Assembly (NCBI GenBank): GCA_964385755.1
Contig: CAYLPZ010000006.1
Location: forward strand, 7,468 to 71,467
Source: an uncultured Coprobacillus sp.
GTDB lineage: Bacteria; Bacillota_I; Bacilli_A; ML615J-28; CAG-698
Reading direction: 5' to 3'
DNA length: 64,000 nt
Under the pieces are notes generated by a model. That model was not told the origin of the DNA. It saw only the letters and a list, made by a program, of their open reading frames with translations, and ran no database searches. Within the stretch, counting starts at the first letter, position 1, and each line of letters starts with the position of its first letter. Shown piece by piece: positions 17,671 to 64,000 of the stretch. Position numbers and translations under genes: made by a program.

Positions 17671-18279
17671 CTAATTTTTATAGATTAATGTTTCAGGATG
17701 AGAAAAATTAAGTATTATTTTCTTCTTAGGGTTTATTAATAAATTCATAGTTCCTTGTTCTTTTGTGTTCATTAATGTATCCATTGTTAGAGATCTATAT
17801 GGTTTAAAACCACATTTTTCTTGTACTCTTTTTGATTGATTATTGAAATTAAAATAACCACAAGTAAGAAAATCATAATTTAAATCATTAAATAAATAAT
17901 CAATTACCGCTTTGACTGCTTCAGCCATTAACCCATGTCCCCAATAATCTTTACTTAATACAAAACCGATTTCTCTGCCTTGATAACCATTAAATTCAGT
18001 TAATGTATCTTCCATTCCATATTTTTCAATGCCGAGGGAACCAATTACTTTATTTTTTGATTTGATTATGATTGCGAAAACCTTATCTTCTTTTATGAAT
18101 ATTTCAAGTATTTCTCTTGATTTTTCAATATTCTCATGATGGTTCCAACCAGCCATCTCTCCTACTCCAGCTTCTTTAGCGTATTCATAAAAATCATCTA
18201 AATCATCATAATTAAAACTTCTTAAAATAAGTCTTTCTGTTTCTATTACTTTTCCATTTATATTAAATTTTGCATTCAT
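17671..18279 (-). CDS. GNAT N-acetyltransferase (RimJ/RimL type)
   Basis: IETERLILR, EIGFVLSKDYWGHGLMAEA, NNQSKRVQEKCGF. Confidence 0.85.
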   Translation of the reverse strand: MNAKFNINGKVIETERLILRSFNYDDLDDFYEYAKEAGVGEMAGWNHHENIEKSREILEIFIKEDKVFAIIIKSKNKVIGSLGIEKYGMEDTLTEFNGYQGREIGFVLSKDYWGHGLMAEAVKAVIDYLFNDLNYDFLTCGYFNFNNQSKRVQEKCGFKPYRSLTMDTLMNTKEQGTMNLLINPKKKIILNFSHPETLIYKN

Positions 18280-46172: not shown

Positions 46173-49100
46173 CTATAACCAAAAACGCTTTTTAATAAAT
46201 ACAAATAGCACAACTAAACTTGCTAAAGCAGTAACTGCTGTAGCAGCTAAACCTACTTTGTTAACATTAGTTGTTGGTAATGTATTAATTTCATTTACAA
46301 CATCAATATCTTCATTTAAATTACTAAAGTATTCATCAAAACCTTTTTTGAAGCTATCAACTGTTTTCGTATCAAGATATTTCTTGTCATCTCTATCAAC
46401 AATCTTTAATGCTTCAACTATTTCATAATAAGTTGAAAGTTTATTAAAGTCATATGTAGGACCAAGATTATTAATGTTTTCAATAATATGACTATAATTC
46501 TTATTAATTCTAATCATATTAATTTCATTCCATTTAGCTTCTGCGTTTTCAAGTCTTTCTAATAAACTATCAAGATATTCTTTTGTATATCCATATTGTG
46601 TTAAATCTTGAGTAACTAAATTATAAGCTGTTCTCGCATCTTTGATAATTTGTTCATCTCCAATCTTAACATCGTCAGGAATTAAACTTACTTTATCTAA
46701 ATAGTTTATTGATTTACTATCTAATGCCACATAATCACTTTTTATTACATTATCAACATTAAAATATAATCTGTAAAGCATATCTTTATATGTTTCATCT
46801 ATAGCATTTGTTGGAATAATTAGATTCATCTTTTCAGCTAAACCAATCATATCTTTAAATTGACCATAATAAAGTGGTGTTGCACCATTAAATAAGAAAT
46901 ATTTATTTAATTCTTTATAGATTTCTGAACTTGTGTCATATGATATATCATTAGTAGTGATTGTTCCTTCTAAAATTGGAGCAGTAGTTGACTTAAACTC
47001 AATAGTTTTTAGATTAACACTACCATAAAATGCCATATTACCAATTAACTTTAAAGTATCTGGGAAAATTAGTTTAATAATTCTACGATTAAAATATCCA
47101 GCATATTCACTAATTCTAACGGTATTAAATAGTACTTCATAAGTCTCTGATGGTTTTGCGGTTGGATATGCACTTAGTGAATATTTCCCGTTTTCATTTG
47201 TTGTATAAAGAACACCATCATCTAATCTTACATAATCATTTATTACACATGTATCATTTCTAGATAAATCTGTAAATCTAACTTGATTTACATTGTAGTA
47301 GAATGCTGTAGGAGCAATATACTTAACTGTACTTGGTAAGTTTATCTCACTTACCGCAATGCAGCTTAATGCCTGAGCATCAATTACTTCTACTTTTGGC
47401 ATGTATACAGCTTCAAGATTAGCACAAGATAAGAAACTACCAGGTGCAAGTTTAATGACATTTGGAAGATTAACAGTAATTAATGATTCGCATTTATTAA
47501 ATGCTTGCATCGATATTTCAATTACACTATCAAGTGATATTTCTTTTAGTGCTACACAGTTCATAAATGCTGCTTCTTTGATATATCTAACATCATTTAT
47601 TATTACACTTTGTAATTTTTCATCATCAAGAAATGTTCCTTCATTTATGCATTCTAAAATACTAGTTGTTTCAAATGTTTCTAGAGACAAACAACCAGAG
47701 AACGCATAACTTCCAATAGTATTTAAGCCCTTTCCGATTGTTACATTAGATAGCATATCTGCATAAGAGAATGCATAATCACCAATAATCTTTAGTGTAT
47801 CAGGAAGAGCAATAGCAGTTATTATATTTCCTCTTGCTTGATTTACCCCCGCAAACGCATAAGACCCAATTTCTTCAATGTTAGGAATATTAATACTTTC
47901 TAAATTTACACAGTCTGAAAAAGCATAATTACCTATTACTTTTACTTCTTCTAAATAAATATTTATTAAATTAATACATCCAAAGAAAGCTCCTTCTAAG
48001 ATTTCTTTGGTTTTTCTTAATGATACTGAACTTAAAGATTCATCATTATAAAAAGCATGAGCACCCACAGTATTTACTTCTAAATCTACACTACTTAAAT
48101 TTTTACAATTTGCAAAAGCTTCGTTTCCAAGGCTCTCAATTTTTCCTGTTACCTTTGTTAGGTTTTGACAGTCCATAAATGCAGCTTGTGAAATGATTAC
48201 ATCATCATTAAATTTAATAGATTCTAGTTTTGTTTTCGCAAAGCAATATGGAGCAAAATATAAAACCTTGTCAATATTTACACAATTTACTAATCCACTT
48301 TCTTCGAAAGCAGATTCGTTTAAAGTTACATTTTCAGCCAATATTACGTTTTCTAAATTATTGCAATTAGCAAAGGCATTACTACCAATTACTTTTACAT
48401 TAGCTAAATCAATAGAATATAGATTATCAAGTCCACTAAAAGCACCTTCATAAATCTCTTCTACTTTACTATCTAAAGTTACAAATTTATTATCTAATGC
48501 TTTTGGAGCTACTAAATATATAACTTTATTGTCTTTTGAGAGTAGATAACCACCATTAAAATTATAATATTGGTTTTCTAAAGAAACATCAAAAGTACTT
48601 AAGTTATTTGAGCCACTGAATACTTCACCATAGTTCTTAGTTATTCTTGTGTTATTATTTATTGTTACAATTTCTAAATGAGGGCAATTTGCGAAAGCAC
48701 GTTTCTCTAAAACCACATCACTATTCGGCATTGTAACTTTTTGTAAATTACTACAATTTTCAAATGCAGATTCATAAATAAATTCACAAGAAACATCTTC
48801 AAATATTACTTCTTCTAAAGCATCGCAATCATTAAATGCTTTAGAGCCAACGTATACTAAATTATTGTGAATAGTTACTTTTGTAAGTAAATCACAATTT
48901 TCGAAACAATTACTTGGGATTCTATCATTATAAATATCAAGTATAGATATACTTGTATTTGCAAACATTAAGTCAGCTAAATTTGTATATTTACCGATTA
49001 TTACCTCTTTTAAATTAATACAGTTATTGAAAGATTCAATACCACCATTAATTAATGAAGTAATGTCAACAAATGTTAAACTTTCACAATCTTTAAATGC

Positions 49101-52100
49101 TGCCTCACCAATTGCATACACGCTAGTTAAATTAACTGAAGAAAGTGCTTTACAGCCCATGAAAGCAAAAGAACCAATCAACTCAACATCATCAAGATTA
49201 ATGTCTGTTAATTTTTCATCCCCCGCAAAAGCATATTCTTTGATAAATGGACAAGATGTACCATCATTATCTTTTAAGAAATTAACTCTTTCTAGTGCTG
49301 TACAATTATAAAAAGCATATTTTCTCACTTCTTTAACATCAGCAGGGATAGTTACACTTATAACTGTATCATTTGTACAAGGAGTTTTCGCAGAATCATA
49401 ATCATCATTTTTAATTTCTATTTCATAATCTGTTGTATATAGTGAAAATGCAAAAGCACCAATGTATAAAATGCCTTCATCATCAGGGATTACTACATTT
49501 CCACCAATACCTTTATATGCTACTAATACATTACTTTCAACAATAAATTCATTTTTAACAACTACTTTTGTAGAAGCCATTAAAGTTGATTGTCTTCCTC
49601 CTACTTTTACCTTTAAAGAGATAGTCGCATTACCTTCTTTAAGAGCAGTCACTACACCATTTTCATCTACTGTCGCAACTTTTTCATTTGTAGAAGACCA
49701 AATTAGTTCATAGTCTTTTAAGTTCCAAGGTTTTAATTCATAATTTAGTTTTACCTGTTCGCTTGGATAGAATGACACAAATTCCTTATCCGTAAAGAAG
49801 AAATGATCACCAGCTTCACCAATCTCTGATTCTTCTGGTCCATTAGCAAAAGCTTTGATTGTTTCAAAGTAAGTAAAGTTAATATCTGTAAGCTTATCTG
49901 CACCAGTTTCAACTTCCTTATCTCTTACTTTAATTTTCAAATTAACTGAATAAGAATATCCATCACTTGCAAGCGCGTAACAACTAATTGTTGCAGTACC
50001 AGAACCAACTGCTTCAATTTCTCCATTATTTACTTTTATTATATTTTCATCTGATGTTGTCCATTTTAATGTTGAAAAATATTTATTTTGATTATCTACA
50101 TCACTAGAAATAGTTGGATCATCAGATGTCAACATTTCATTTAAATTTAAAATATCACCGACAGAAATATTTTTAAAATATTGATAAGTGTTACCTGATA
50201 CACTTGAGTAGTACTTTTCTTGATATTTAATGTTTTGTGAATTAGTACCTGGAAGTGTAACAAAGGCATAACTTTGATTTAATGCATAATCATCAACAAA
50301 AAATCCAAGACCATTAGATAAGTTGACATTTTTATCTTCCATTGAACTATATTGAATTAAATCCATATAATCCGTTATTTCTACAGTCACTTTTGTCTCT
50401 TCATTCTTTTCGCTATAAACAGGTATTGCGTAATCACCAAGTGATACTACTTTTCCATCAATTAATGTGAATGGTCTAATAGATTGAGTATAGTGATTAT
50501 CATATACATAAACATCAACATAATAGCGATAATCTTTTAATGATTTATCATACTTAGTGTAGAACTGTGCGTCAGTAATTGTAGGAGCTTGATAATCCAC
50601 ATAGAACGAGAATTCAAATGTGTTATTAAGATTTGTATTTAGTCCACCATCTTGATAATCAAGTTCTGCTACCATACTGAATGAATATTTTGTATTATTT
50701 TCTAAACCAAGCTCAGCAGCAGTTACATTCAATATTTCATAGTTTGGAACTATTGATCCACTAAAATATGCTTTACGAGCATCGTATTTAATATGTTCAT
50801 AAACTTCTTCACCGGTATACTCATTAATTATTTTATATGTTACCTTTTTAGCATTTCTTAAAAGACCAGCATACACTGTGGTAACTCCATTAATCGTATC
50901 TAAGTAATATCCCACAGCAGCATGCTCTTCTGATGCAGGAATCTTATCATATTTACTTTCATCAATTTCATATACATATGTTCCTAAAGGAATAACATAA
51001 CTATAATAGTATCTTCCTAAAGGAGTTGAAGCGTAATAATCAGCTTTAAGTTTATCTTCTTCATCAATTGCGCCATTATATGCTTCACTTTCAACTTCAT
51101 AGTATGTTTTATCAAACATTGGTGCAGCTGTCCAATCGCCAAAGAATGCAAGATAAGGAATTGATAAATCAATACCATCTTCATTAAGTGACTCTAAAAC
51201 ACCATAACCTTCTACATACATTCCGTTAATAAATGATTTTCTAATGTATGCTTTTTCATCATCAGTTAGTTTAATCGTATATGTAACTTTTACAGTTCCA
51301 TTTTCATTAACAGTTAGAATATCTCCATCTAATACACCATCACCTGTAATTTGTGCTAAAGTATTTGGGTTTAACATATATGCTTTTTCAGCAACGTATT
51401 CTGGGTCTGATGTTGATAAAGATTCTGTCATTGTTAAATCTGTAAGTTTATATTTTAATTTTTCATTTGATGTATTATGAACATTGAAATTAAGTACATA
51501 AACTCCAGTTTCTTCTTTATCATCTTTTAATTCTAGTTTTGGTTTTGTTTGGCCATCAACTGATAAATAAGCTTTTGTGTTAACAGCATACTCAAGATTC
51601 CCAAGACCAGATCCTTGCTTTCTAGGTGAATAAGGATTACCTTCTTCATTAAGAATAATAGTTGCGGTTGACATTAAAAGCGAGTTTGCCATATTTGTAA
51701 GTTCTGGAGAAGTCATATATGGATATCTTTCTTTTAAAGCTTGTTTTACTAAAATAACAACGCCACAAAGATTTGGGCTAGCCATAGATGTTCCAGATAT
51801 TTTATCATATCCTCCACCTGGGACAGATGAAGTAATTGATCCTCCATGAGCAGTAATTTCTGGTTTTAATGCTAAATCAGATACAGGTCCCCAGCTTGAG
51901 AAATCAGACATAAAAGGACCAGCTAGATAGCTCTTATCAAATGTAAGAGTTCCACTACTCTTAGCTGCTAGATATTCACCATCATCTTTTGAGATAGAAC
52001 AAAGTGGAATATCTAAATGACTTCCAGCATTCATATATACATCACCGGAAATATTATTATAAATAATACAACCAATCGCTCCTTGTGCTAAAGCAATTTG

Positions 52101-53636
52101 TGCTTTTTCCTCAAAACTAGTTTCACCACGCTTAACTAAAGCAATCTTCCCCTTAACATTTATACTTGAATAGTTAACTTTTTTTCCAACTCCTGGCACA
52201 GTAACATATTCAAGTTTTATAACTTCTTTTGTGGTATTTACTTTATCAAATAACATCTCATAGAAATCATAAGGATTGCCTGCACTGCTATTTGCATTAT
52301 TAAAGAAAAATGTATAACCATTTTCATCAACGATATATTTACTCTTTTCACCACTAATTGAAGCAACAGAAATAGTCGATGGATAAGTAGAAGGTGATCC
52401 AACTGTTGCGGAGTCAGGATTAGATGCTTTATTTGTATTACTATTAGCACCTCCATAGCCAGATGAATAATCATTGCTCGCCGCAACAACTAAAGAAATA
52501 CCAGCTTTTTCAATGTTGTTATATACAACATTTACATAGTCATTCTCACGAGAACTAGAAAAGCCACAAGCAGTTCCTAATGATAAGTTAATTGCATCAA
52601 CACCAATCAAAATAGCATCTTCCAAAGCAGCTAGAATATCAGATTCTATTGCACCTTGATTAAAATCACCAAATACTTTCATTAATACAAGTTGAGTATT
52701 AATAGCAACACCAGTAATTACGTCATCTTTACCACCAATGATCCCCGCAACATGTGTACCATGGTTAGAATCATAAGGAGACACATCACTATCTTTATCA
52801 GCATAGTCATAAGCAAATGGAATTTTAGCGTTCATATATACATCTTGAACTTTGATATTTTCAAAATATCTATAAGCTCTTGTGTTTTGTAATATACTAT
52901 CAATATAATTCATTGAAAGCATTGTTTCTTCTGGCATGTTTTGAAATACAGTATGGTGAATATCAAAGCCAGAGTCAAGAATCGCAACAGATGTATTAGA
53001 GCCATCAAAATCTACATTACTTGAATCGAAGATACCAGTGTCATATACTTTCACAAAGTTAGTTACAGCATCATAACTACTAGTTCCATCATCTTCAGTA
53101 GTTTGATAATCAGGTTCTGAATACACTTCAGAAATAAATGCATTAATATTATAATCGCTACTCATTAATTTCTTATACTGTCCATAAGTTGTTTGAGCAG
53201 AAAAACCGCTTAAAATAGTAGTAAATGAATGATCAACACTTTGGATGTAATTCTCACTTATTAGCTTTTCTGCTAATGTATTTTGTTCAGAGAACATTTT
53301 TTCTTTGAGATAATTAGCATAGTCACTTGTAACATAATCTCTTACATTACTATAACCGTTATTATCATTATTATAACGATCTAACAAACTAATAGATTTA
53401 GTAGTGATAACAATATTAATCTTATCACCATCATCAAGTTCATTAAGTTCATATAAATATTCTTTATTAAGATACTTAGTGTTATCTGTCATCTCCGCAA
53501 TCAAATCAGCGTGCTCGACATTTAAACTAATTTTATCATTAACTTTTTCACTTACATCATTAATTCCACAAGAGATACAAACAAATCCTAAAAATATAGT
53601 TAGTACTAGTAATGTAATCTTTCTTTTAAACTTCAT
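46173..53636 (-). CDS. Cell-surface S8 (lactocepin/C5a-peptidase-like) serine protease with I9 propeptide, PA, Fn3/Ig, a long BspA-type LRR stalk and a C-terminal TM
   Basis: Catalytic triad AILDSG, NHGTHVAG, SGTSMASP; PA domain KGKIALVKRGE..FEEKA; SSWGP..KPEITAHG; many IGxxAFxxCxxL repeats; lipobox CISC; C-terminal hydrophobic helix plus KKR. Confidence 0.92.
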   Translation of the reverse strand: MKFKRKITLLVLTIFLGFVCISCGINDVSEKVNDKISLNVEHADLIAEMTDNTKYLNKEYLYELNELDDGDKINIVITTKSISLLDRYNNDNNGYSNVRDYVTSDYANYLKEKMFSEQNTLAEKLISENYIQSVDHSFTTILSGFSAQTTYGQYKKLMSSDYNINAFISEVYSEPDYQTTEDDGTSSYDAVTNFVKVYDTGIFDSSNVDFDGSNTSVAILDSGFDIHHTVFQNMPEETMLSMNYIDSILQNTRAYRYFENIKVQDVYMNAKIPFAYDYADKDSDVSPYDSNHGTHVAGIIGGKDDVITGVAINTQLVLMKVFGDFNQGAIESDILAALEDAILIGVDAINLSLGTACGFSSSRENDYVNVVYNNIEKAGISLVVAASNDYSSGYGGANSNTNKASNPDSATVGSPSTYPSTISVASISGEKSKYIVDENGYTFFFNNANSSAGNPYDFYEMLFDKVNTTKEVIKLEYVTVPGVGKKVNYSSINVKGKIALVKRGETSFEEKAQIALAQGAIGCIIYNNISGDVYMNAGSHLDIPLCSISKDDGEYLAAKSSGTLTFDKSYLAGPFMSDFSSWGPVSDLALKPEITAHGGSITSSVPGGGYDKISGTSMASPNLCGVVILVKQALKERYPYMTSPELTNMANSLLMSTATIILNEEGNPYSPRKQGSGLGNLEYAVNTKAYLSVDGQTKPKLELKDDKEETGVYVLNFNVHNTSNEKLKYKLTDLTMTESLSTSDPEYVAEKAYMLNPNTLAQITGDGVLDGDILTVNENGTVKVTYTIKLTDDEKAYIRKSFINGMYVEGYGVLESLNEDGIDLSIPYLAFFGDWTAAPMFDKTYYEVESEAYNGAIDEEDKLKADYYASTPLGRYYYSYVIPLGTYVYEIDESKYDKIPASEEHAAVGYYLDTINGVTTVYAGLLRNAKKVTYKIINEYTGEEVYEHIKYDARKAYFSGSIVPNYEILNVTAAELGLENNTKYSFSMVAELDYQDGGLNTNLNNTFEFSFYVDYQAPTITDAQFYTKYDKSLKDYRYYVDVYVYDNHYTQSIRPFTLIDGKVVSLGDYAIPVYSEKNEETKVTVEITDYMDLIQYSSMEDKNVNLSNGLGFFVDDYALNQSYAFVTLPGTNSQNIKYQEKYYSSVSGNTYQYFKNISVGDILNLNEMLTSDDPTISSDVDNQNKYFSTLKWTTSDENIIKVNNGEIEAVGSGTATISCYALASDGYSYSVNLKIKVRDKEVETGADKLTDINFTYFETIKAFANGPEESEIGEAGDHFFFTDKEFVSFYPSEQVKLNYELKPWNLKDYELIWSSTNEKVATVDENGVVTALKEGNATISLKVKVGGRQSTLMASTKVVVKNEFIVESNVLVAYKGIGGNVVIPDDEGILYIGAFAFSLYTTDYEIEIKNDDYDSAKTPCTNDTVISVTIPADVKEVRKYAFYNCTALERVNFLKDNDGTSCPFIKEYAFAGDEKLTDINLDDVELIGSFAFMGCKALSSVNLTSVYAIGEAAFKDCESLTFVDITSLINGGIESFNNCINLKEVIIGKYTNLADLMFANTSISILDIYNDRIPSNCFENCDLLTKVTIHNNLVYVGSKAFNDCDALEEVIFEDVSCEFIYESAFENCSNLQKVTMPNSDVVLEKRAFANCPHLEIVTINNNTRITKNYGEVFSGSNNLSTFDVSLENQYYNFNGGYLLSKDNKVIYLVAPKALDNKFVTLDSKVEEIYEGAFSGLDNLYSIDLANVKVIGSNAFANCNNLENVILAENVTLNESAFEESGLVNCVNIDKVLYFAPYCFAKTKLESIKFNDDVIISQAAFMDCQNLTKVTGKIESLGNEAFANCKNLSSVDLEVNTVGAHAFYNDESLSSVSLRKTKEILEGAFFGCINLINIYLEEVKVIGNYAFSDCVNLESINIPNIEEIGSYAFAGVNQARGNIITAIALPDTLKIIGDYAFSYADMLSNVTIGKGLNTIGSYAFSGCLSLETFETTSILECINEGTFLDDEKLQSVIINDVRYIKEAAFMNCVALKEISLDSVIEISMQAFNKCESLITVNLPNVIKLAPGSFLSCANLEAVYMPKVEVIDAQALSCIAVSEINLPSTVKYIAPTAFYYNVNQVRFTDLSRNDTCVINDYVRLDDGVLYTTNENGKYSLSAYPTAKPSETYEVLFNTVRISEYAGYFNRRIIKLIFPDTLKLIGNMAFYGSVNLKTIEFKSTTAPILEGTITTNDISYDTSSEIYKELNKYFLFNGATPLYYGQFKDMIGLAEKMNLIIPTNAIDETYKDMLYRLYFNVDNVIKSDYVALDSKSINYLDKVSLIPDDVKIGDEQIIKDARTAYNLVTQDLTQYGYTKEYLDSLLERLENAEAKWNEINMIRINKNYSHIIENINNLGPTYDFNKLSTYYEIVEALKIVDRDDKKYLDTKTVDSFKKGFDEYFSNLNEDIDVVNEINTLPTTNVNKVGLAATAVTALASLVVLFVFIKKRFWL

Positions 53637-54681: not shown

Positions 54682-55533
54682 TTATTTAATCGAAATAATA
54701 TTACTAAACCCTGTTAGATTTAATATATCAATTATGTTTTCATTTGCGTTAATTATTTCTAATGTTTTGTTTACACATTTTTTCTTAAGTTTCAATATAA
54801 CTCGAAGACCAGCACTAGAAATATATCTTAAATCTTTCGCGTTAATAATAACACTATCCAGAATATTTGCTTCTGTTATTACTTTTTCAAATTCATCTGC
54901 ATTAGTTGCATCAACATTACCAACTAGAGTAATTAAAGTGATGTTATTATCATATGCAATGTTCATTTGATTATTATTTTCTTTTTTGTAAATTTCTTTT
55001 TTTCCAAATACTTCATCAAATTGTTGTTTTAATTCCTGATACATTTTTAAATGGTTAAAGCGTTTAAAAACTTGAAGATATTCTAAATATAGCCACTCTT
55101 GTTTTTCTTTTCCTCTTTTAAATAAACTCCAAACGCTATCACCATCTTTTTGTAAGGCATAATTAATATCTAAAATATTTGATAATTTATCAGCTAAGAT
55201 TAGCATTGCACAATCATCATCACAACTTTCTAATGCTTTTAAAGTTGTTGTTTTTCTTTCTTCCCATGTTTTTGATTTATCTTCAGTATCAAACATTACA
55301 ATGTTATATACTTTTTCACCAAATTCTTTTTTTATTACATCCGGTGATACATGAGCATCTTCTACTGTATCATGTAAAAATCCCGCCGCAACAACTTCAT
55401 TACTAGCCCCATTTTCAAGTAGTATCATTCCAACAGAAACAGGATGTAGAATATATGGAAGACCACCTTTCCTTACTTCCCCTTTATGTACATTTGAAGC
55501 AAATAACAATGCTTTACGTTTTATATCATTCAT
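54682..55533 (-). CDS. RelA/SpoT-type HD hydrolase (Mesh1/SAH-like) fused to a STAS anti-anti-sigma domain
   Basis: HKGEVRK..PYILHP, LHDTVED, ADKLSN; C-terminal GNVDATNA..YISSAGLRVIL..LTGF. Confidence 0.85.
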   Translation of the reverse strand: MNDIKRKALLFASNVHKGEVRKGGLPYILHPVSVGMILLENGASNEVVAAGFLHDTVEDAHVSPDVIKKEFGEKVYNIVMFDTEDKSKTWEERKTTTLKALESCDDDCAMLILADKLSNILDINYALQKDGDSVWSLFKRGKEKQEWLYLEYLQVFKRFNHLKMYQELKQQFDEVFGKKEIYKKENNNQMNIAYDNNITLITLVGNVDATNADEFEKVITEANILDSVIINAKDLRYISSAGLRVILKLKKKCVNKTLEIINANENIIDILNLTGFSNIISIK

Positions 55534-55542
55534 AATTAGTTA

Positions 55543-56718
55543 TTAGAAATATAGTTTATCTACCTTTCCCACATTATTTTCTATTTTATTTATATAAAAT
55601 TTTAGAAGTTCTTTTCCTTCCTCTGTATTTTCAAGATTATATTTATGAACTCTACGAATAATACGTGCACCAGTTAACATTTCAATTTTTGTGACTACAT
55701 CATCAATTAATTGCTTATTATTATCAAAATAAACATTTAAAAATTTATTCCACATTTTAACAGTTGTTTCATAAGTTAAACCATAAAAATCAAGGGCATT
55801 TTGATGATTAAACATTGAATAACCAACAAATCCCGCATATACACTTGCTAGATCAAATATAGGATGACCAACAGATACTGTATCCATATCAATAAGTATT
55901 GGTCCATCTTCATCATACATTACATTATTTGTATGATAATCACCATGTATTAATACTTCTGAAACTGGTATTTCAGAGACTAATTTACTTAGCTTTTCAT
56001 AAGACTTTTCTGAGATAATTCCTTTTGTTGCCTTAACCCAAGTAATACCTTCTTCTTTAATTGATGGAAACTCATCAGTAGTTGCTTTTACCTCATGAAT
56101 TTTCTTCAAAAACTTAGCAAATATTTCCACGTAATAATCCAGTTTTTCACTATCTTTCGCAATTAATTTACTAATTGATTTTGCATTTAATAGTTCAACT
56201 ACATTGCCATAGAAATCTCCAACTTTAACAATATCATAAGGGATTGCGGAATTGATACCTTTCATAAATACTTTTCTACATAACTCACGTTCATTTTTGA
56301 TTTCTTCTAGTGGTGAGTTCTTATAAAATACTTTAACAATCGTCTCAGCATCATAACGATATATTCTTCCTTTTGCTCCTTGCGCAATTACTTCACATCC
56401 TTCAATTGATAATTTTCTAAATGCTTTTTCTACTGTTAATAATTCTACAAAACCTGTCATATCAAAGATATTATATATCTCATTTGAAACATTGATTACT
56501 TTTAATTCACTAACAGTTTTACGAAGTCTTAATAAAACACGGAGCCCAGCACTTGAGATGTACTCTAAGTTTTCAGCGTCAATAACAAATTCTTTGCCTT
56601 CATTTTCTTTAACTAGCGTTCTTATTCTATCTTCTGCTTCATTTGCGTTTGTTGCATCTATGCGACCAATTAACTCAATTACTAATAATTCATTTTCTAT
56701 TCTTCCTTTAATTTCCAT
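55543..56718 (-). CDS. STAS domain fused to an aminoglycoside/choline kinase-like phosphotransferase
   Basis: GRIDATNA..YISSAGLRVLL..MTGF; then IAQGAKGRIY, IVKVF, LIHGDYHTNNVM, LIDMD. Confidence 0.85.
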   Translation of the reverse strand: MEIKGRIENELLVIELIGRIDATNANEAEDRIRTLVKENEGKEFVIDAENLEYISSAGLRVLLRLRKTVSELKVINVSNEIYNIFDMTGFVELLTVEKAFRKLSIEGCEVIAQGAKGRIYRYDAETIVKVFYKNSPLEEIKNERELCRKVFMKGINSAIPYDIVKVGDFYGNVVELLNAKSISKLIAKDSEKLDYYVEIFAKFLKKIHEVKATTDEFPSIKEEGITWVKATKGIISEKSYEKLSKLVSEIPVSEVLIHGDYHTNNVMYDEDGPILIDMDTVSVGHPIFDLASVYAGFVGYSMFNHQNALDFYGLTYETTVKMWNKFLNVYFDNNKQLIDDVVTKIEMLTGARIIRRVHKYNLENTEEGKELLKFYINKIENNVGKVDKLYF

Positions 56719-56728
56719 ATATACTCCT

Positions 56729-58387
56729 TTATTTTCTCTTTATGACAAGCATTGTAATATCGTCAAATTGTGGAGTTTCCCCACAAAAACTATCAATTGA
56801 AGTTTTAATGTTATTTACAAGTTCCTTTGTAGAATTGCATATATTATTATTACTTACTTCCAAAATACCTTTTATTCCAAATTGTTCATTTTTATGATTA
56901 ATTGCTTCGGTAACACCATCCGTATATACTAAAAGCATTTCGTCTTTTTCTAATGTATATTCATGATTTTTATATTTCATATTAGGAAAACACCCAATAG
57001 CTAACCCATGTTTAGTTTCATACACTTTGGCTTTTCTATCTTTTGATATTATAATTGGGTCTTCATGTCCAGCGTTTGCAGCGATGACTTTACCTGTTGA
57101 TATTTCCAAAATAGCAAACCATACAGTAACAAACATATCCTCTTGGTTGTTGTTAGAAATCTTATTGTTTAACTCTTCTAATACCTTAGCAGGGTCATTT
57201 ATTAAAGTAGCAAGATTACTTGTTAATATCTTAGTTACCATCATAAATAACGCTGCTGGAACACCTTTTCCAGATACATCACCAATAGTGAGTGCTAAAT
57301 GATCTTCATCAAGAAGATAAAAATCAAAATAATCACCACCAACTTCTTTTGCTGGGGACATTAACCCAAATAAATCAATGTCATTGCGCTCAGGGAATGG
57401 TGGAAATACACTTGGTATCATCGTTTGTTGAATTTTTGTTGCTAGGTTCAATTCTGCTGCTATTCTTTCTCTTTCACTAGTTAACTTCTCTAGTGTTTTT
57501 ACACTGTTAACAACATCTGTTTCCAAGTGACGAAGTGATTTCCATATTGTATTTAATTCGGTAATTTTACTTATTGTACTAATATTTTCTTCTGAAATAG
57601 TTCCACTACCAGCAAAACGTTTTGCTTCCAAAATTATTTTCTTAACTGGATTAGAAAATTGTTTAATACAATATAATATTCCTAAGCAAACTAAAATTAC
57701 TAAGTTTCCAAGCATAGTTAATGTATTTATTCGCAAAAAATTTGATATTAAGCTTTGTAACCCACTCATTTCTCTTTGTACACAAGTTATTGCCACTACA
57801 TCACCATTATTATCCAAAACTGGAGATAAAGCTGTAATGTGGGGTGGTTTACCATTTAAATTGCTTGTTCTTACAACTAAACCATTTTCAATATTCTTTT
57901 CATATAAATCTTGATATATCTCTATATAATCACTCGTACTTTCACGACTAAATCCTAATTCCCATGGTGTATAGCCATATGGATTGTTCTCTATCACTAC
58001 ATTAAACACACTATAGAAATTATTATAATTATTCCCTTTAAAAGTTATAACATATAAAAGAGTTACTTCTTGCTTCTGACATAAATGATCAAGGTTTTCT
58101 AGTGTTTCTAAATAATTGCTATCATTTTTATAATATTCAGTATCTGATATATATTTTTCTATATTGCTGCCATCAATAAAATCATTTGCGGTATTTGCTA
58201 CATTAAGAGCATATTCGAAATATACATCTTTCATTGATTTATTAATTTCCACATAACCAATAATACAAGCAACAGCATTAGAAAACAATAAAATCATTAT
58301 TATGAAGAAAATAAGCCTAAAGTTTATACTATTTACTATTTTTTTTACTTTCATTTTTTTCGTATTTTTCTTCATACTTTTAATCAC
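56729..58387 (-). CDS. Membrane sensor PP2C/SpoIIE (RsbU-like) phosphatase with a HAMP domain; start may be 58375
   Basis: TM - extracellular domain - TM - HAMP; ELNLATKIQ, PAKEVGGDYFD, IGDVSGKGVPAALFM, FVTVW, NAGHEDP, YTDGVTEA, FDDITML. Confidence 0.9.
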   Translation of the reverse strand: MIKSMKKNTKKMKVKKIVNSINFRLIFFIIMILLFSNAVACIIGYVEINKSMKDVYFEYALNVANTANDFIDGSNIEKYISDTEYYKNDSNYLETLENLDHLCQKQEVTLLYVITFKGNNYNNFYSVFNVVIENNPYGYTPWELGFSRESTSDYIEIYQDLYEKNIENGLVVRTSNLNGKPPHITALSPVLDNNGDVVAITCVQREMSGLQSLISNFLRINTLTMLGNLVILVCLGILYCIKQFSNPVKKIILEAKRFAGSGTISEENISTISKITELNTIWKSLRHLETDVVNSVKTLEKLTSERERIAAELNLATKIQQTMIPSVFPPFPERNDIDLFGLMSPAKEVGGDYFDFYLLDEDHLALTIGDVSGKGVPAALFMMVTKILTSNLATLINDPAKVLEELNNKISNNNQEDMFVTVWFAILEISTGKVIAANAGHEDPIIISKDRKAKVYETKHGLAIGCFPNMKYKNHEYTLEKDEMLLVYTDGVTEAINHKNEQFGIKGILEVSNNNICNSTKELVNNIKTSIDSFCGETPQFDDITMLVIKRK

Positions 58388-58802
58388 TTTCTTTTAAAAA
58401 CTTCTTTATTCTTAAAACGTTCTTATTATCTAAATAATTATATATAACTTCATCCATTAGATTTTTAACCATATAAATTCCTAAGCCACCGATAGGTCTA
58501 TCTTCAAGTGGTATATCAAAGTTTGGATCATCTTTTAAAAGTGGATTATATTCTACTCCTTCATCAATAAAAGTAATTTCAACCACATCATCATCACAAT
58601 TAACTTCAATATATACCTTACCATCACCTTGCAAATAAGCATATTTTGCTATGTTTACAAATATTTCCTCTGCTGCTTCTTCTAACGCAAATCTTTCTTT
58701 GAAATTGCAACTAGTATCATCTAATATTTCATTTAAAAACATTAATACAGAGCTAAGATTTTCAACTTTTGCATTTATTTCTAGTTTTTTTGCTATACTC
58801 AT
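58380..58802 (-). CDS. Anti-sigma factor / Ser kinase (RsbW/SpoIIAB-like HATPase); start at 58802
   Basis: EEIFVNIAKYAY (N box), IDEGVEYNP, GGLGIYMV; GAGG RBS before MSIAKK. Confidence 0.88.
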   Translation of the reverse strand: MSIAKKLEINAKVENLSSVLMFLNEILDDTSCNFKERFALEEAAEEIFVNIAKYAYLQGDGKVYIEVNCDDDVVEITFIDEGVEYNPLLKDDPNFDIPLEDRPIGGLGIYMVKNLMDEVIYNYLDNKNVLRIKKFLKESD

Positions 58803-58815
58803 ATTTATATCTTCC

Positions 58816-59118
58816 TCAATTAATAGTAACAATATCAATAAAACCAGTAAGTTTGAATACATTAATTATTTCATTAGGCATATTTACAATTTCAAATTTT
58901 ATATTCATTTTTTTAGTTTGTTTTACAAATAACAATACCACTCTAAGACCAGCACTTGAAATATAATGAAGTTTAGTAAAATCAAAAATTAATGATGTTA
59001 TATCATCTGTTAAAATATCATTTACTCTTTCTTCAAGAAGCATGTAGGTCTGAGTATCTAATCTTCCATCTAAATAAACTTTACAAACTTGATTTTCTCT
59101 TTCTATAATTATATTCAT
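58816..59118 (-). CDS. Stand-alone STAS anti-sigma-factor antagonist (RsbV/SpoIIAA-like)
   Basis: GRLDTQT, LHYISSAGLRVVL, VFKLTGF; 100 aa. Confidence 0.9.
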   Translation of the reverse strand: MNIIIERENQVCKVYLDGRLDTQTYMLLEERVNDILTDDITSLIFDFTKLHYISSAGLRVVLLFVKQTKKMNIKFEIVNMPNEIINVFKLTGFIDIVTIN

Positions 59119-62076: not shown

Positions 62077-62103
62077 CTGAATTGTTAGTTTTTAACAATT
62101 CAG
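62077..62103 (-). terminator. Strong terminator after the TIR-LRR gene
   Basis: Perfect 11-bp stem ctgaattgtta/taacaattcag with A/T flanks. Confidence 0.8.
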
Positions 62104-62120
62104 ATTTTTTTTATAAAAAT

Positions 62121-63698
62121 TTATTTTGTAGTGTAAGGAATACCTTTTGACTCACAATATTTTGCGGCAGGAGAATTGTTATTGCACACAACAGTTACAT
62201 TGTTACAACCGCTTAACATACCCCAACCATATTCAATAACACTATCTGGGATAACAAATCTCTTAAGTGATGAACATCCACGAAAAGCAGAATCATCAAT
62301 GCGTATAATTGAATCAGGTAATACAAGTTCTTCTAGTTCTGTACAGTTACAAAATGCGCCTTCACCAATTTCTGTTACACTATCAGGAATTATTATATGT
62401 TTCAAATTGCTACCATAAAATGCCCAGTCACAAATTAGCATAACAGAATCAGGTATTTCATAGAAATCTTCACCATCATTTACAGCATAGGAAATAAGAG
62501 AAGATTTATTCTTATTAAATAGTACGTTATTTACTGTTTTAAAGAATTTATTTTTACTATCGACTTCAACAGATCTAAGGCTTGTACAACCACGGAAAAC
62601 GCCATAACCTATATTATTTACTTTTTGTGGAATATAAATATCTAATAAACTTTGGCAATCCTTAAAAGCATTCTTACCAATTTTATTTAAATCAGAGTTA
62701 AGCTTGATTGTTTGTAAATTCAAACATCCACTAAACACCATATCATCAATCTTGGTAACAGGATCAGGAATAACAATTTCTTTTAATTGTGCACAATCAG
62801 CAAATGCACTTTCTCCTAAAATTGTAAGCTTTTCAGGTAGTTTTATTGTTTCAAGTGATTTACAACTATTAAATACACCACTATATAGTTCTGTTATACT
62901 ATTTTCAAGTTCTATATTTTTTAAAGAAGCACAGTTTTCAAAACAACGTTCACTAATTTCTAATCCATCACCAACTACAGTAAGTGACTTAAGAGATACA
63001 CAATCACGGAATGCACTTTCTCCTACCTTTTTTATATTGCTTGGTAAATAAACAGATTTTAAAGACTTGCAACCACGAAAAGCTTCTTTATTGATTTGTG
63101 CTACTTCTTGACCAAAATCAATTTTTTCTAAGCTTTCACAATTCTTAAATGCATTATTTCCGATAATGCGTACACCTGAAGGAATAGCTAGAGAAGTACT
63201 ACCATCCTTGCATTTTACAAGTACATCTCCTTCAGTTTGTAAGCTACGCATTGTCTCTATTGGTAACCCAGAAATCAATTTATAAATATATTTTTCATCA
63301 TTTTGATTTTTTAAGTGTTGAAGATTTTCTAAAATCATTTTTAGTGGTGCAGGGATCTGTACTGATTCATTAAGATACACTGGGTAGATTTTTTTATCAT
63401 ATTTGTATGCGGTAATAATTTCCATTCCACAATATTTTGAAGCCATAGAAGCATCAGATATAAAGATTAAAAACGCAGAACAATTTACTATTCGGCTACG
63501 TAATTCTTCACGAAAATCTTCTCCAATTTCCATTGTATCATCATACCAAAATCTATACTTTTCTTTCTCAATTATTTTCAATATCTTATACACTTCTTTT
63601 GTATCCGCATGAGAATAGCTAACAAATATATATGGTTCATTACCATCATACGAATCAAGATTCAACTGAGTTATTTCTTTGTTTAAATTTTCAACCAT
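62121..63698 (-). CDS. TIR domain fused to about 13 BspA-type leucine-rich repeats; start at 63698
   Basis: GGAGGGG RBS; TIR IFVSYSHAD..FWYD..FLIFIS..SKYCGMEI..IYPVYL; 23-aa repeats of the type IPxxVxxIGxxAFxxCxSL; no signal peptide or TM. Confidence 0.88.
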   Translation of the reverse strand: MVENLNKEITQLNLDSYDGNEPYIFVSYSHADTKEVYKILKIIEKEKYRFWYDDTMEIGEDFREELRSRIVNCSAFLIFISDASMASKYCGMEIITAYKYDKKIYPVYLNESVQIPAPLKMILENLQHLKNQNDEKYIYKLISGLPIETMRSLQTEGDVLVKCKDGSTSLAIPSGVRIIGNNAFKNCESLEKIDFGQEVAQINKEAFRGCKSLKSVYLPSNIKKVGESAFRDCVSLKSLTVVGDGLEISERCFENCASLKNIELENSITELYSGVFNSCKSLETIKLPEKLTILGESAFADCAQLKEIVIPDPVTKIDDMVFSGCLNLQTIKLNSDLNKIGKNAFKDCQSLLDIYIPQKVNNIGYGVFRGCTSLRSVEVDSKNKFFKTVNNVLFNKNKSSLISYAVNDGEDFYEIPDSVMLICDWAFYGSNLKHIIIPDSVTEIGEGAFCNCTELEELVLPDSIIRIDDSAFRGCSSLKRFVIPDSVIEYGWGMLSGCNNVTVVCNNNSPAAKYCESKGIPYTTK

Positions 63699-63746
63699 AA
63701 TTCCCCTCCAAAAAATTAACATATATATTTAATGGTTTACATTTAG

Positions 63747-63774
63747 TTAATAATTATAAATTAATAATTATAAA
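63747..63774. repeat. 14-bp tandem duplication (ttaataattataaa x2) in the intergenic gap
   Basis: Exact direct repeat at 63747-63760 and 63761-63774. Confidence 0.8.
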
Positions 63775-64000
63775 TTATAGAAAGACAAGATATAATGCAC
63801 CTAAAGCAACGAAAAGTGTTGGTATTGCGACACTCACACCCATTTTGATAAAATCAAGATAACTAAATTTTTCACCATGCTTATTAAGAATTGAACTCCA
63901 CATGATACCTGCTAAAGCACCTATAGGTGTCAAGAACGCACCAATATTTGAACCAAATATGGTTGCGAAAACTGCAGGTAAACTAGCATTTGCATTTGTA
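63775..64000 (-). CDS. C-terminus of an ArsB/NhaD/SLC13-type membrane transporter (5' part outside the window)
   Basis: Hand translation ..FATIFGSNIGAFLTPIGALAGIMW..GEKFSYLDFIKMG..LYLVFL*, a typical ion-transporter superfamily C-terminus. Confidence 0.7.
   Translation of the reverse strand, partial: TNANASLPAVFATIFGSNIGAFLTPIGALAGIMWSSILNKHGEKFSYLDFIKMGVSVAIPTLFVALGALYLVFL

Follow-up and report, generated by a model that had tools for sequence, protein, structure and literature searches.

A TIR-LRR protein linked to an ArsB/NhaD/CitMHS-type permease: a possible Thoeris-like signalling module with ion transport as output

We analysed a gene for a TIR-LRR protein, that is, a TIR domain followed by leucine-rich repeats (LRRs), together with the permease gene next to it, both on the minus strand near the end of a 64,000-nucleotide stretch of contig CAYLPZ010000006.1 from an uncultured Coprobacillus sp. 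("the window" denotes this whole stretch). The features of the locus, in window coordinates, are as follows.

62077–62103, minus strand: intrinsic terminator, a hairpin followed by a T-run (terminator scan, RNAfold)
62121–63698, minus strand: TIR-LRR coding sequence, 525 aa plus TAA stop (list of open reading frames, sequence, Pfam TIR_2 + LRR_5, homologues)
62124–63188, minus strand: BspA-type LRR_5 solenoid with C-terminal cap, aa 171–525 (Pfam, repeat register, AlphaFold2 model, Foldseek)
63261–63650, minus strand: TIR domain, aa 17–146 (Pfam, PDB alignment, AlphaFold2 model)
63420–63422, minus strand: Glu93 codon GAA, putative catalytic Glu of the SKYCGMEI motif (sequence, alignments)
63699–63774, no strand assigned: spacer of 76 nt between permease stop and TIR-LRR start (sequence)
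63703–63709, minus strand: Shine-Dalgarno sequence GGAGGGG, with the ATG 4 nt downstream (sequence)
63775–64000, minus strand: partner permease gene, of which only the 3' end (74 codons and the stop) falls inside the window (Pfam ArsB 1.3e-11, CitMHS)

In the list of open reading frames (ORFs), the TIR-LRR frame spans 62121–63722 (minus strand); the start is probably the ATG at 63698–63696, 4 nt 3' of GGAGGGG (63709–63703), because all aligned homologues begin at the same Met. The terminator hairpin has 11–12 bp, including three G-C pairs, with an RNAfold energy of −13.3 kcal/mol, and comes from a scan that found 2 sites vs. 0.5 expected. We conclude that the terminator is genuine and that its strength is moderate only; the initial annotation, made from the letters of the window, had called the terminator strong. 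The same scan reported neither a terminator nor a minus-strand promoter in the 76-nt spacer. From the first base after the permease stop, the spacer carries a perfect tandem repeat of a 14-nt unit (TTTATAATTATTAA, two copies, 63747–63774), which could be an operator, a −10-like element, or an AT-rich chance occurrence. The permease gene is complete on the same contig, where it lies directly upstream of the TIR-LRR gene and encodes 418 aa (L063 8305–9561).

Pfam places TIR_2 at aa 24–132 (E 7e-18) and LRR_5 in three stretches (E 2e-82) of the TIR-LRR protein, and gives TIR_2 and LRR families only: no NB-ARC/STAND NTPase or other oligomerisation module, and no SAVED/STING, cyclase, or pAgo domain, was found in the protein by Pfam. 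In a PDB sequence search, the SKYCGMEI motif aligns to SSWCLDEL of the plant TIR-only protein AT1G72930/AtTIR (3jrn) and to SDWCWDEL of Cat1 (9mud). We take the Glu of these two motifs to be the catalytic Glu; hence, Glu93 stands at the catalytic position. In an alignment of 27 homologues (mean column identity 73%), Glu93 is invariant, as are the WYDDTMEIGEDFR and SKYCGMEI motifs. An AlphaFold2 model built with the 27 homologues (predicted local distance difference test score, pLDDT, 89; predicted template-modelling score 0.77) comprises a flavodoxin-like beta/alpha TIR domain (pLDDT ~80–87), a joint of ~24 aa between TIR and LRR, formed by a short helical linker and a beta-hairpin cap, and a long LRR solenoid (pLDDT >90). 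Foldseek matches the model best to the BspA-type LRR surface proteins 4gt6 (2.6e-17) and 4fs7 (4.6e-16); the sole TIR match listed, at rank 50 and with an E of 1.5e-3 that misses the 0.001 line, is to one chain of the MapSPARTA-NAD+ tetramer (8spo). The solenoid, aa 171–525, contains 12 canonical 23-residue repeats with an FxxCxxL anchor and 2–3 irregular repeats, for which "about 13", the count in the initial annotation, is fair. The N-terminus is hydrophilic and the maximum Kyte-Doolittle value over 19-residue windows is 1.20, with no export signal and no transmembrane (TM) helix. On its sequence, the protein is cytoplasmic. The initial annotation had described a cytoplasmic TIR and LRR protein with a retained catalytic Glu and no export signal, and this description is borne out by Pfam, the 3jrn/9mud alignment, hydropathy, and invariance in 27 homologues, with only cosmetic corrections.

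More than 120 database clusters match the TIR-LRR protein over its full length at 57–79% identity. All are 520–540 aa long and identical in architecture; the entries come from Clostridia or Ruminococcaceae metagenome-assembled genomes (MAGs; MAG taxa are the labels in the sequence records) and are annotated merely as "leucine-rich repeat protein" or "TIR domain-containing protein". Clustering at 50% identity leaves a handful of ~555-aa entries for the family in the representative library, and the next-nearest TIR domains occur in multi-TIR tandem proteins. A scan of one genome per GTDB species yielded 55 TIR-LRR loci; the collection scans matched exact peptide patterns, and the counts are lower bounds. 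About 50 of the 55 come from gut Clostridia MAGs whose labels read Christensenella, Christensenellaceae, Oscillospiraceae, or Clostridia; a Cloacimonadota MAG supplies one (TIR-LRR identity 51%), and three are in the cultured Actinomycetota Gordonia araii NBRC 100433, Patulibacter minatonensis DSM 18081, and Nesterenkonia alba DSM 19423 (44–45% identity, full-length). In the GTDB scan the gene is therefore sporadic across three phyla, Bacillota, Actinomycetota, and Cloacimonadota.

The gut origin of most homologues would suit a host-directed factor, in which a TIR mimic with BspA-like LRRs is released to disturb animal Toll-like receptor (TLR) signalling. BspA-type LRRs are characteristic of surface proteins that interact with a host, mimicry of the TLR pathway has been suggested for bacterial TIR proteins, and the model for such a factor would be TcpB, TcpC, and TirS, which reportedly mimic host TIR domains of the TLR pathway. 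However, the protein has neither signal peptide nor anchor, the architecture and the operon occur also in free-living Gordonia, Nesterenkonia, and Patulibacter, and the gene is strictly linked to genes for permease and, as described below, RyR/RCK proteins. We consider a host-directed role scarcely credible.

The permease is the constant neighbour. A ~435-aa ArsB/CitMHS permease gene lies directly upstream of the TIR-LRR gene, on the same strand, in 51 of 53 GTDB loci, and the order permease then TIR-LRR, on the same strand, was found at all homologue loci examined one by one. In the loci with called gene coordinates that were inspected, the gap between the two genes is 12–25 nt, vs. 76 nt in the window. 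Permease and third partner (below) aside, the next neighbour cluster in the ORF clustering is shared by no more than 4 loci. An upstream permease is lacking at five loci: L051 (Clostridia MAG), L054 (Cloacimonadota), L055 (Gordonia araii), L056 (Patulibacter), and L057 (Nesterenkonia). There, the TIR-LRR gene is followed instead by the gene for a ~375-aa CitMHS/NhaD-like permease, whose start lies within a few nt of the TIR-LRR stop or overlaps it. This second type of permease is only 29–37% identical to the Clostridia permease, over ~90–130 residues. Within the second type, TIR-LRR (41–59% identity) and permease (41–67% identity) diverge together; within the first type, the pairwise identities of TIR-LRR and permease correlate, with r = 0.80. 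An assignment of the permease to ArsB proper was rejected, with the L002 orthologue scoring 140 bits on NCBIfam ArsB vs. a cut-off of 457; the assignment retained is the Pfam superfamily ArsB/NhaD/CitMHS. Comparison of the loci shows that TIR-LRR/permease linkage is obligate, in two gene orders, with two subfamilies of one superfamily, in three phyla.

In a neighbour-joining tree of 118 permeases, the 54 TIR-LRR-linked permeases group together in a single large clade that also contains several permeases without TIR-LRR, and the tree requires 11 Fitch parsimony changes of TIR-LRR presence vs. ~39 expected at random. We read the tree as one old acquisition of TIR-LRR followed by repeated loss. 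On the sequence evidence, TIR-LRR is an accessory gene, patchy in occurrence and, when present, docked at the permease; we count this distribution in favour of the signalling module proposed below. Locus L145 (1295–1698) carries a ~135-aa TIR-LRR-like remnant (67 aa of TIR, 58 aa of LRR) between the permease gene and an RyR/RCK gene, and the remnant looks like a decayed TIR-LRR copy. On the permease tree one old insertion suffices to account for the Clostridia arrangement, and we rejected Clostridia synteny alone as proof of function. The possibility that follows is accidental adjacency, in which TIR-LRR landed by the permease once in a Clostridia ancestor, the two proteins work separately, and TIR-LRR acts alone or with unlinked genes; the observation that TIR-LRR-positive permeases of Clostridia form essentially one clade is what such an accident would leave. 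This account does not extend to the second permease subfamily, whose pairing with TIR-LRR in Actinomycetota, Cloacimonadota, and one Clostridia MAG has the gene order reversed, nor to the lack of conservation of all other neighbours, and we rate it very improbable. It is the second gene order elsewhere that carries the functional argument, because the Clostridia synteny is explicable by one old insertion; given two gene orders and two permease subfamilies across three phyla, functional coupling is therefore the economical explanation.

Upstream of the permease, no riboswitch or RNA leader that might point to its substrate was found at Rfam gathering thresholds in seven loci (135 kb), which returned only unrelated Lys and TPP riboswitches and tRNAs. 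Beyond the window, ~945 nt without a called gene separate an acyltransferase gene from the permease gene (L063 7361–8304; no Rfam match), and at L065 a comparable gap of 1.4 kb contains two tRNA genes.

At 15 of the 55 loci, an adjacent gene encodes a third partner of ~600–720 aa. The gene lies mostly just after TIR-LRR, with a gap of 11–33 nt, and sometimes before the permease gene or divergent from it. The count rises to at least 17 of 55 with L055 and L056, where a protein beside the permease has an RyR domain above the Pfam cut-off (Gordonia, 962 aa, 37.2 bits; Patulibacter, 1237 aa, 30.2 bits, also with TrkA_N). In Pfam, the third partner has a C-terminal RyR domain scoring up to 27.8 bits vs. 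a cut-off of 27.4 and otherwise no strong match; its matches to TrkA_N are marginal and most are below the Pfam cut-off, with one paralogue at 26.2 bits vs. 23.8. The RyR part matches structures of a Bacteroides thetaiotaomicron "putative ryanodine receptor" (3nrt/6uag) with E ~1e-5. An AlphaFold2 model of the third partner, built from database sequences (pLDDT 87), comprises ~4 N-terminal helices, presumed TM, two Rossmann-like domains, and a helical C-terminal domain. Foldseek matches this model best to the TrkA gating ring (4j9v, 6e-7; 4g65, 6.9e-7), TrkH-TrkA complexes, and then BK/Slo1 channels.

The RyR fold binds 2'cADPR, 3'cADPR, and cADPR (cADPR, cyclic ADP-ribose), and phage RyR-domain proteins described in 2026 preprints bind or cleave cADPR isomers (PMC13232231; 10.64898/2026.06.04.730250). 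In the phage glycosidase RyDEP, residues H75, W78, H100, and D117 contact 3'cADPR/ADP-ribose (PMC13232231), and in the phage sponge RyR Tad, residues H129, W132, H154, and D171 contact cADPR isomers (10.64898/2026.06.04.730250). In the third partner, H549, W552, H574, and D591 are invariant in a 24-sequence alignment, and their spacing, +3/+25/+42, equals exactly that of the ligand-contact residues of RyDEP and RyR Tad. We conclude from these residue matches that the third-partner RyR domain probably binds the TIR product.

Related arrangements turned up beside RyR/RCK genes. Locus L073 (1363–12423), and likewise L074, is a TIR-rich cluster that encodes a TIR_2-FHA protein (602 aa), an RyR/RCK protein (596 aa), a protein with two AAA domains and an FtsH-like protease (1124 aa), an RCK paralogue without RyR (659 aa), a separate RyR protein (94 aa), and a TIR protein (110 aa). 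Locus L005, which has TIR-LRR without an adjacent RyR gene, comes from the same metagenome sample as L073, a hint that the RyR/RCK gene may sit elsewhere in TIR-LRR genomes; neighbour searches covered flanks of 4–10 kb. In a Lachnospiraceae MAG (L072 8882–9400), an RyR/RCK gene is directly followed by the gene for a 172-aa protein in which a weak TIR fragment at the N-terminus is joined to classical LRR_4/LRR_1 repeats, which is, judged by these matches, a second, independent TIR/LRR-RyR adjacency.

TIR-LRR is probably not a lone receptor; it is probably part of a TIR signalling module that acts on ion transport. More specifically, and tentatively, we favour a Thoeris-like TIR signalling module with membrane ion transport as its output. 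According to this hypothesis, the LRR solenoid would keep the cytoplasmic TIR-LRR protein inactive until a ligand or partner is engaged; the TIR domain would then, by analogy with its family, cleave or cyclise NAD+ via Glu93 to an ADP-ribose-type nucleotide; and the output would be aimed at membrane ion transport, with the upstream ArsB/NhaD/CitMHS-type permease, linked as described above, as the obligate partner. In complete versions of the module, the membrane protein with a TrkA-like tandem-RCK ring and C-terminal RyR domain would read the TIR product, and the permease itself may read the nucleotide too. Ion transport would thereby be switched, and gradients would change or collapse; in an immune setting, gradients would be dissipated and infection aborted, like in Thoeris systems with membrane or ion-channel effectors. 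The window has the two-gene form, permease plus TIR-LRR. An anti-phage, abortive-infection purpose is plausible, and we rate it most likely, slightly ahead of a physiological one. The reading of the LRR as a sensor over a TIR enzyme, put forward in the initial annotation, is reasonable and is retained here; the further claim of a self-contained single-protein receptor gives way before the strict permease linkage and the frequent RyR partner.

Thoeris is the known system that the module works most like, yet the module fails several criteria of membership. As in Thoeris, a TIR protein with catalytic Glu is encoded beside a membrane protein, relatives of the window locus have an RyR-fold partner, and some loci have extra TIR genes alongside. 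The closest types are those with membrane effectors, namely type II (Macro-TM), type V (DUF2270), and type X (ion channel), and Thoeris systems with membrane effectors, including the type X ion-channel effector, provide precedent for such an output (10.64898/2025.12.03.692087). In contrast to Thoeris, the TIR domain here shares its polypeptide with a long BspA-type LRR, the constant partner is a 10–12-TM ArsB/NhaD/CitMHS secondary transporter and not a small pore-former with a sensor domain, the module lies outside defence islands, its ThsB hidden Markov model (HMM) matches are sub-threshold, and the window contains no recognised effector domain. LRR, permease, RyR, and TrkA go unmentioned in the text and the searched supplements of this systematic Thoeris survey (10.64898/2025.12.03.692087).

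Part of the same evidence can be read as a self-contained NADase, an amended form of the model in the initial annotation, in which triggering of the LRR leads to NAD+ depletion that kills or arrests the cell and the permease is a guarded target or a membrane anchor, the LRR monitoring the cytoplasmic face of a transporter exploited or perturbed by phages. The catalytic Glu is intact, many bacterial TIR fusions deplete NAD+ (10.64898/2025.12.03.692087), and an RyR partner is missing from the examined flanks of most loci, the window among them. What such a NADase leaves hard to explain, without a signal, is an RyR/RCK protein in three phyla with invariant cADPR-contact residues; moreover, the TIR-LRR protein has no STAND/NTPase or other oligomerisation module in Pfam, and nothing marks the permease as a phage receptor or target. 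The linkage to the RyR/TrkA-like protein therefore argues for a membrane signalling output rather than plain NAD+ depletion, and we regard a self-contained NADase as unlikely.

Substitution patterns in the LRR bear on the same choice. Entropy per position is highest, across the protein, at the canonical concave-face positions (2.2–2.65 bits), and a repeat-specific surface strip around FxxC, non-core positions among them, is almost frozen (0.3–0.5 bits). Pairwise Nei-Gojobori ratios of non-synonymous to synonymous substitution (dN/dS) were computed for 51 close pairs; because most pairs are saturated at synonymous sites, the selection analysis is limited. The ratios are 0.01–0.09 for the TIR domain, 0.03–0.16 for the whole LRR (always <0.17), 0.04–0.36 for solvent-facing LRR beta-strand positions (always <0.4), 0–0.06 for the LRR GxxAFxxC strip, and 0.03–0.13 for the permease. 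We conclude that an arms-race signature is absent from the LRR. The frozen strip suggests, as a pattern in the sequences, a constant protein partner. For a self-contained NADase, the strip, as the most conserved part of the protein, would fit a constant partner such as the permease.

Several observations weigh against the Thoeris-like module that we favour. First, dN/dS is strongly purifying in every region of TIR-LRR, with no diversifying selection on the LRR. Second, the flanks of the module are argS, ung, ilv/leu, rpmH-rnpA-yidC, gyrB-gyrA, folA, addAB, penicillin-binding protein, and sugar-utilisation genes; the module is in housekeeping contexts, not defence islands. Diversification of the LRR and enrichment in defence islands had both been raised for the homologues by the initial annotation; the first is contradicted by purifying selection throughout and the second by the housekeeping flanks. 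Housekeeping contexts of homologues were among the findings that the initial annotation had named as refuting its reading, so its own grounds for refutation are borne out in part, and an anti-phage role stays a matter of inference. Third, the window's 43 proteins, all scanned with PADLOC, include no defence gene near TIR-LRR, no ThsA, and no cyclase, and the permease and the RyR protein match no PADLOC model; the initial annotation's statement that no ThsA or cyclase partner lies in the window is thus upheld by PADLOC, but a conserved partner, the permease, is present, cut at the window edge. Fourth, an IMG/VR scan found no phage-borne TIR-LRR, only LRR-only relatives at 29–37% identity. Fifth, the permease looks like an ordinary transporter and not a dedicated effector, to judge from sequence and context: the window permease has no nucleotide-binding domain recognisable by Pfam or NCBIfam, permease orthologues 69–71% identical stand alone after pyrG or amid other housekeeping genes, and only 4 of 71 evaluable metagenome permease loci have TIR-LRR downstream (two more contigs end inside TIR-LRR). 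Sixth, the RyR/RCK family is large (1275 hits) and often stands alone in ordinary contexts, and an RyR/RCK gene is absent, by tblastn and HMM search, from the 64-kb window and its contig. Finally, Clostridia synteny by itself could be inherited and not functional.

Scans against defence models gave weak matches for the TIR-LRR protein: the best match to PADLOC ThsB is 2.6e-7 (28.5 bits), the score on the NCBIfam Thoeris type III model ThcB4 is 12.3 bits vs. a cut-off of 220, and the PADLOC SAVED-TIR matches cover the TIR part only (7e-4). NCBIfam Thoeris models do not match the permeases or the third-gene proteins of L054 and L057. The 55 GTDB flanks were compared by ORF clustering rather than Pfam scan, and among Pfam-annotated or ORF-clustered neighbours there are no Argonaute, SAVED/STING, or nucleotide-cyclase families. 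Individual loci carry further genes of possible relevance. At L068, which was the only clearly defence-like neighbourhood encountered, NLR-like giants lie within 8 kb of the module: a 1902-aa DUF4062 (TIR-like NADase)-AAA_16-LRR_5 protein (1–1855) and an 1841-aa nSTAND1 protein (12383–17908). Extra TIR genes lie beside the module at L005 (2943–6499; TIR_2, 302 aa, and TIR-like, 449 aa, plus HAD_SAK_2 and a metallophosphatase), at L030 (4173–5540; TIR_2, 455 aa), and at L051 (8707–11050; TIR_2, 386 aa, then a transglutaminase-like protein).

The same wiring could serve physiology, with an LRR-sensed cue leading to a TIR messenger that tunes the permease directly or via the RCK/RyR gating protein, such that TIR-LRR is an accessory input to ion homeostasis and the bacterial counterpart of cADPR acting on ryanodine receptors. 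Such a role is a serious rival, though we lean against it. Both membrane partners, permease and RyR/RCK protein, are conserved and housekeeping-like, occur widely, and mostly do so without TIR-LRR; the flanks are housekeeping genes; the permease tree is compatible with long vertical co-inheritance; dN/dS of TIR-LRR is as low as that of the permease; the conserved repeat-specific LRR strip suggests a constant partner; and gating rings of the TrkA type are known to control ion transport in response to nucleotides. Set against these points, the gene is dispensable, with repeated independent loss on the permease tree and a decayed copy at L145; its scatter over phyla resembles horizontal transfer; extra TIR genes cluster alongside, like in multi-ThsB Thoeris loci; and STAND/DUF4062 genes lie near the module at L068. 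All enzymatic bacterial TIRs characterised so far belong, to our knowledge, to conflict systems, which also counts against a physiological role.

A more specific version of physiological wiring is a housekeeping pathway from TIR via (g)cADPR and an RyR-domain/RCK protein to an ion transporter, which would be a forerunner of animal cADPR-ryanodine-receptor signalling; we doubt that the module is such a pathway. Its steps would be a cytoplasmic LRR-gated TIR cyclase that makes the messenger from NAD+ and a TrkA-like gating protein that reads it with a host RyR Repeat12-type domain and controls the ArsB/NhaD-type permease. The triad of TIR-LRR, permease, and RyR protein is conserved in Bacillota, Actinomycetota, and Cloacimonadota, and the pathway would stand in place of an antiviral system or beside one.

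Comparison with other known systems places the Thoeris-like module apart from each of them. Plant TNLs and animal TLRs also have TIR and LRR in one polypeptide, with a sense-then-execute logic that would be expected here. Unlike in plant TNLs and bacterial Avs/STAND proteins, there is no NB-ARC/STAND module between the domains; unlike in TLRs, there is no TM segment and no extracellular LRR, and the order is TIR then LRR; and unlike in both TNLs and TLRs, the LRR is of the bacterial LRR_5 (BspA/TpLRR) type. Because the LRR is of this bacterial type, the TIR-LRR architecture appears convergent with, and not homologous to, that of TNLs and TLRs. The BspA/TpLRR surface proteins themselves (4gt6, 4fs7, PcpA 4cp6, TpLRR 6mlx) share the repeat family and the fold; those proteins are exported or surface-exposed, whereas TIR-LRR has no signal peptide and has its LRR fused to a cytoplasmic enzyme domain.

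Like the axis from ADP-ribosyl cyclase/SARM1 via cADPR to the ryanodine receptor, the module genetically ties a TIR-type enzyme to an RyR Repeat12-type domain and to ion transport, and the ligand residues H-x-x-W...H...D are shared by this axis, RyDEP, RyR Tad, and the third partner. In the cADPR axis the RyR domain belongs to a Ca2+ release channel; here it belongs to a membrane protein of bacteria that has a TrkA-like gating ring. The phage proteins RyDEP and RyR Tad differ in being a soluble glycosidase and a soluble sponge directed against a host signal. As in TrkA-TrkH/RCK systems, the cytoplasmic part of the third partner is modelled to fold as a TrkA tandem-RCK ring and is encoded beside a secondary ion transporter; unlike in those systems, N-terminal helices, presumed TM, and an RyR domain are fused to it, and the neighbouring transporter belongs to the IT superfamily and not to TrkH/KtrB. 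The BcTir/BcTpr pair of Bacillus cereus also combines a TIR enzyme with a solenoid-repeat sensor in a small operon and is reported to have anti-phage activity (10.1101/2023.05.26.542521); in that pair, the repeat is a TPR on a separate protein and there is neither a permease nor an RyR partner. The literature searched contains no description of a TIR-LRR plus permease (plus RyR/RCK) module.

Elsewhere in the window, the neighbours of TIR-LRR are genes for an M28 peptidase, CotH, and a partner-switching set. The five proteins of the partner-switching set (54682–59118, minus strand) are a STAS protein (100 aa), an anti-sigma-type kinase with HATPase_c_2, a SpoIIE/PP2C phosphatase that has a membrane region at its N-terminus, and two fusions, STAS-APH kinase and HD_4-STAS; none of the five has a PADLOC match. 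The PADLOC matches among the 43 window proteins are to other genes: mad3 (2 proteins, 5.5e-27), mad8 (2 proteins, 4.4e-14), ATPase-Toprim, AriA, subtilase, DolB, and AbiLi, weak and generic overall. A 2487-aa protein (46173–53636, minus strand) contains S8 subtilase, PA, fn3_5, and Big_2 domains and six LRR_5 stretches (E 3.6e-117), so that the same genome also fuses BspA-type LRRs to subtilase/PA/fn3/Big_2, the usual make-up of an exported surface protein.

If the wiring of the Thoeris-like module is true, the TIR-LRR protein would be an LRR-gated bacterial TIR enzyme, that is, the sensor-effector pairing of TLRs and TNLs without an NTPase, a secondary transporter would be the constant partner of a TIR system, and a host-encoded RyR-domain protein would be the likely receiver of a TIR signal. 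The literature searched describes no bacterial RyR-domain receiver, and the module offers a candidate. If plain NAD+ depletion is true instead, the protein would still represent a new, compact TIR-LRR defence architecture common in gut Clostridia. The cultured carriers Gordonia araii, Nesterenkonia alba, and Patulibacter minatonensis make a pre-eukaryotic origin of cADPR-to-RyR-domain signalling directly testable.

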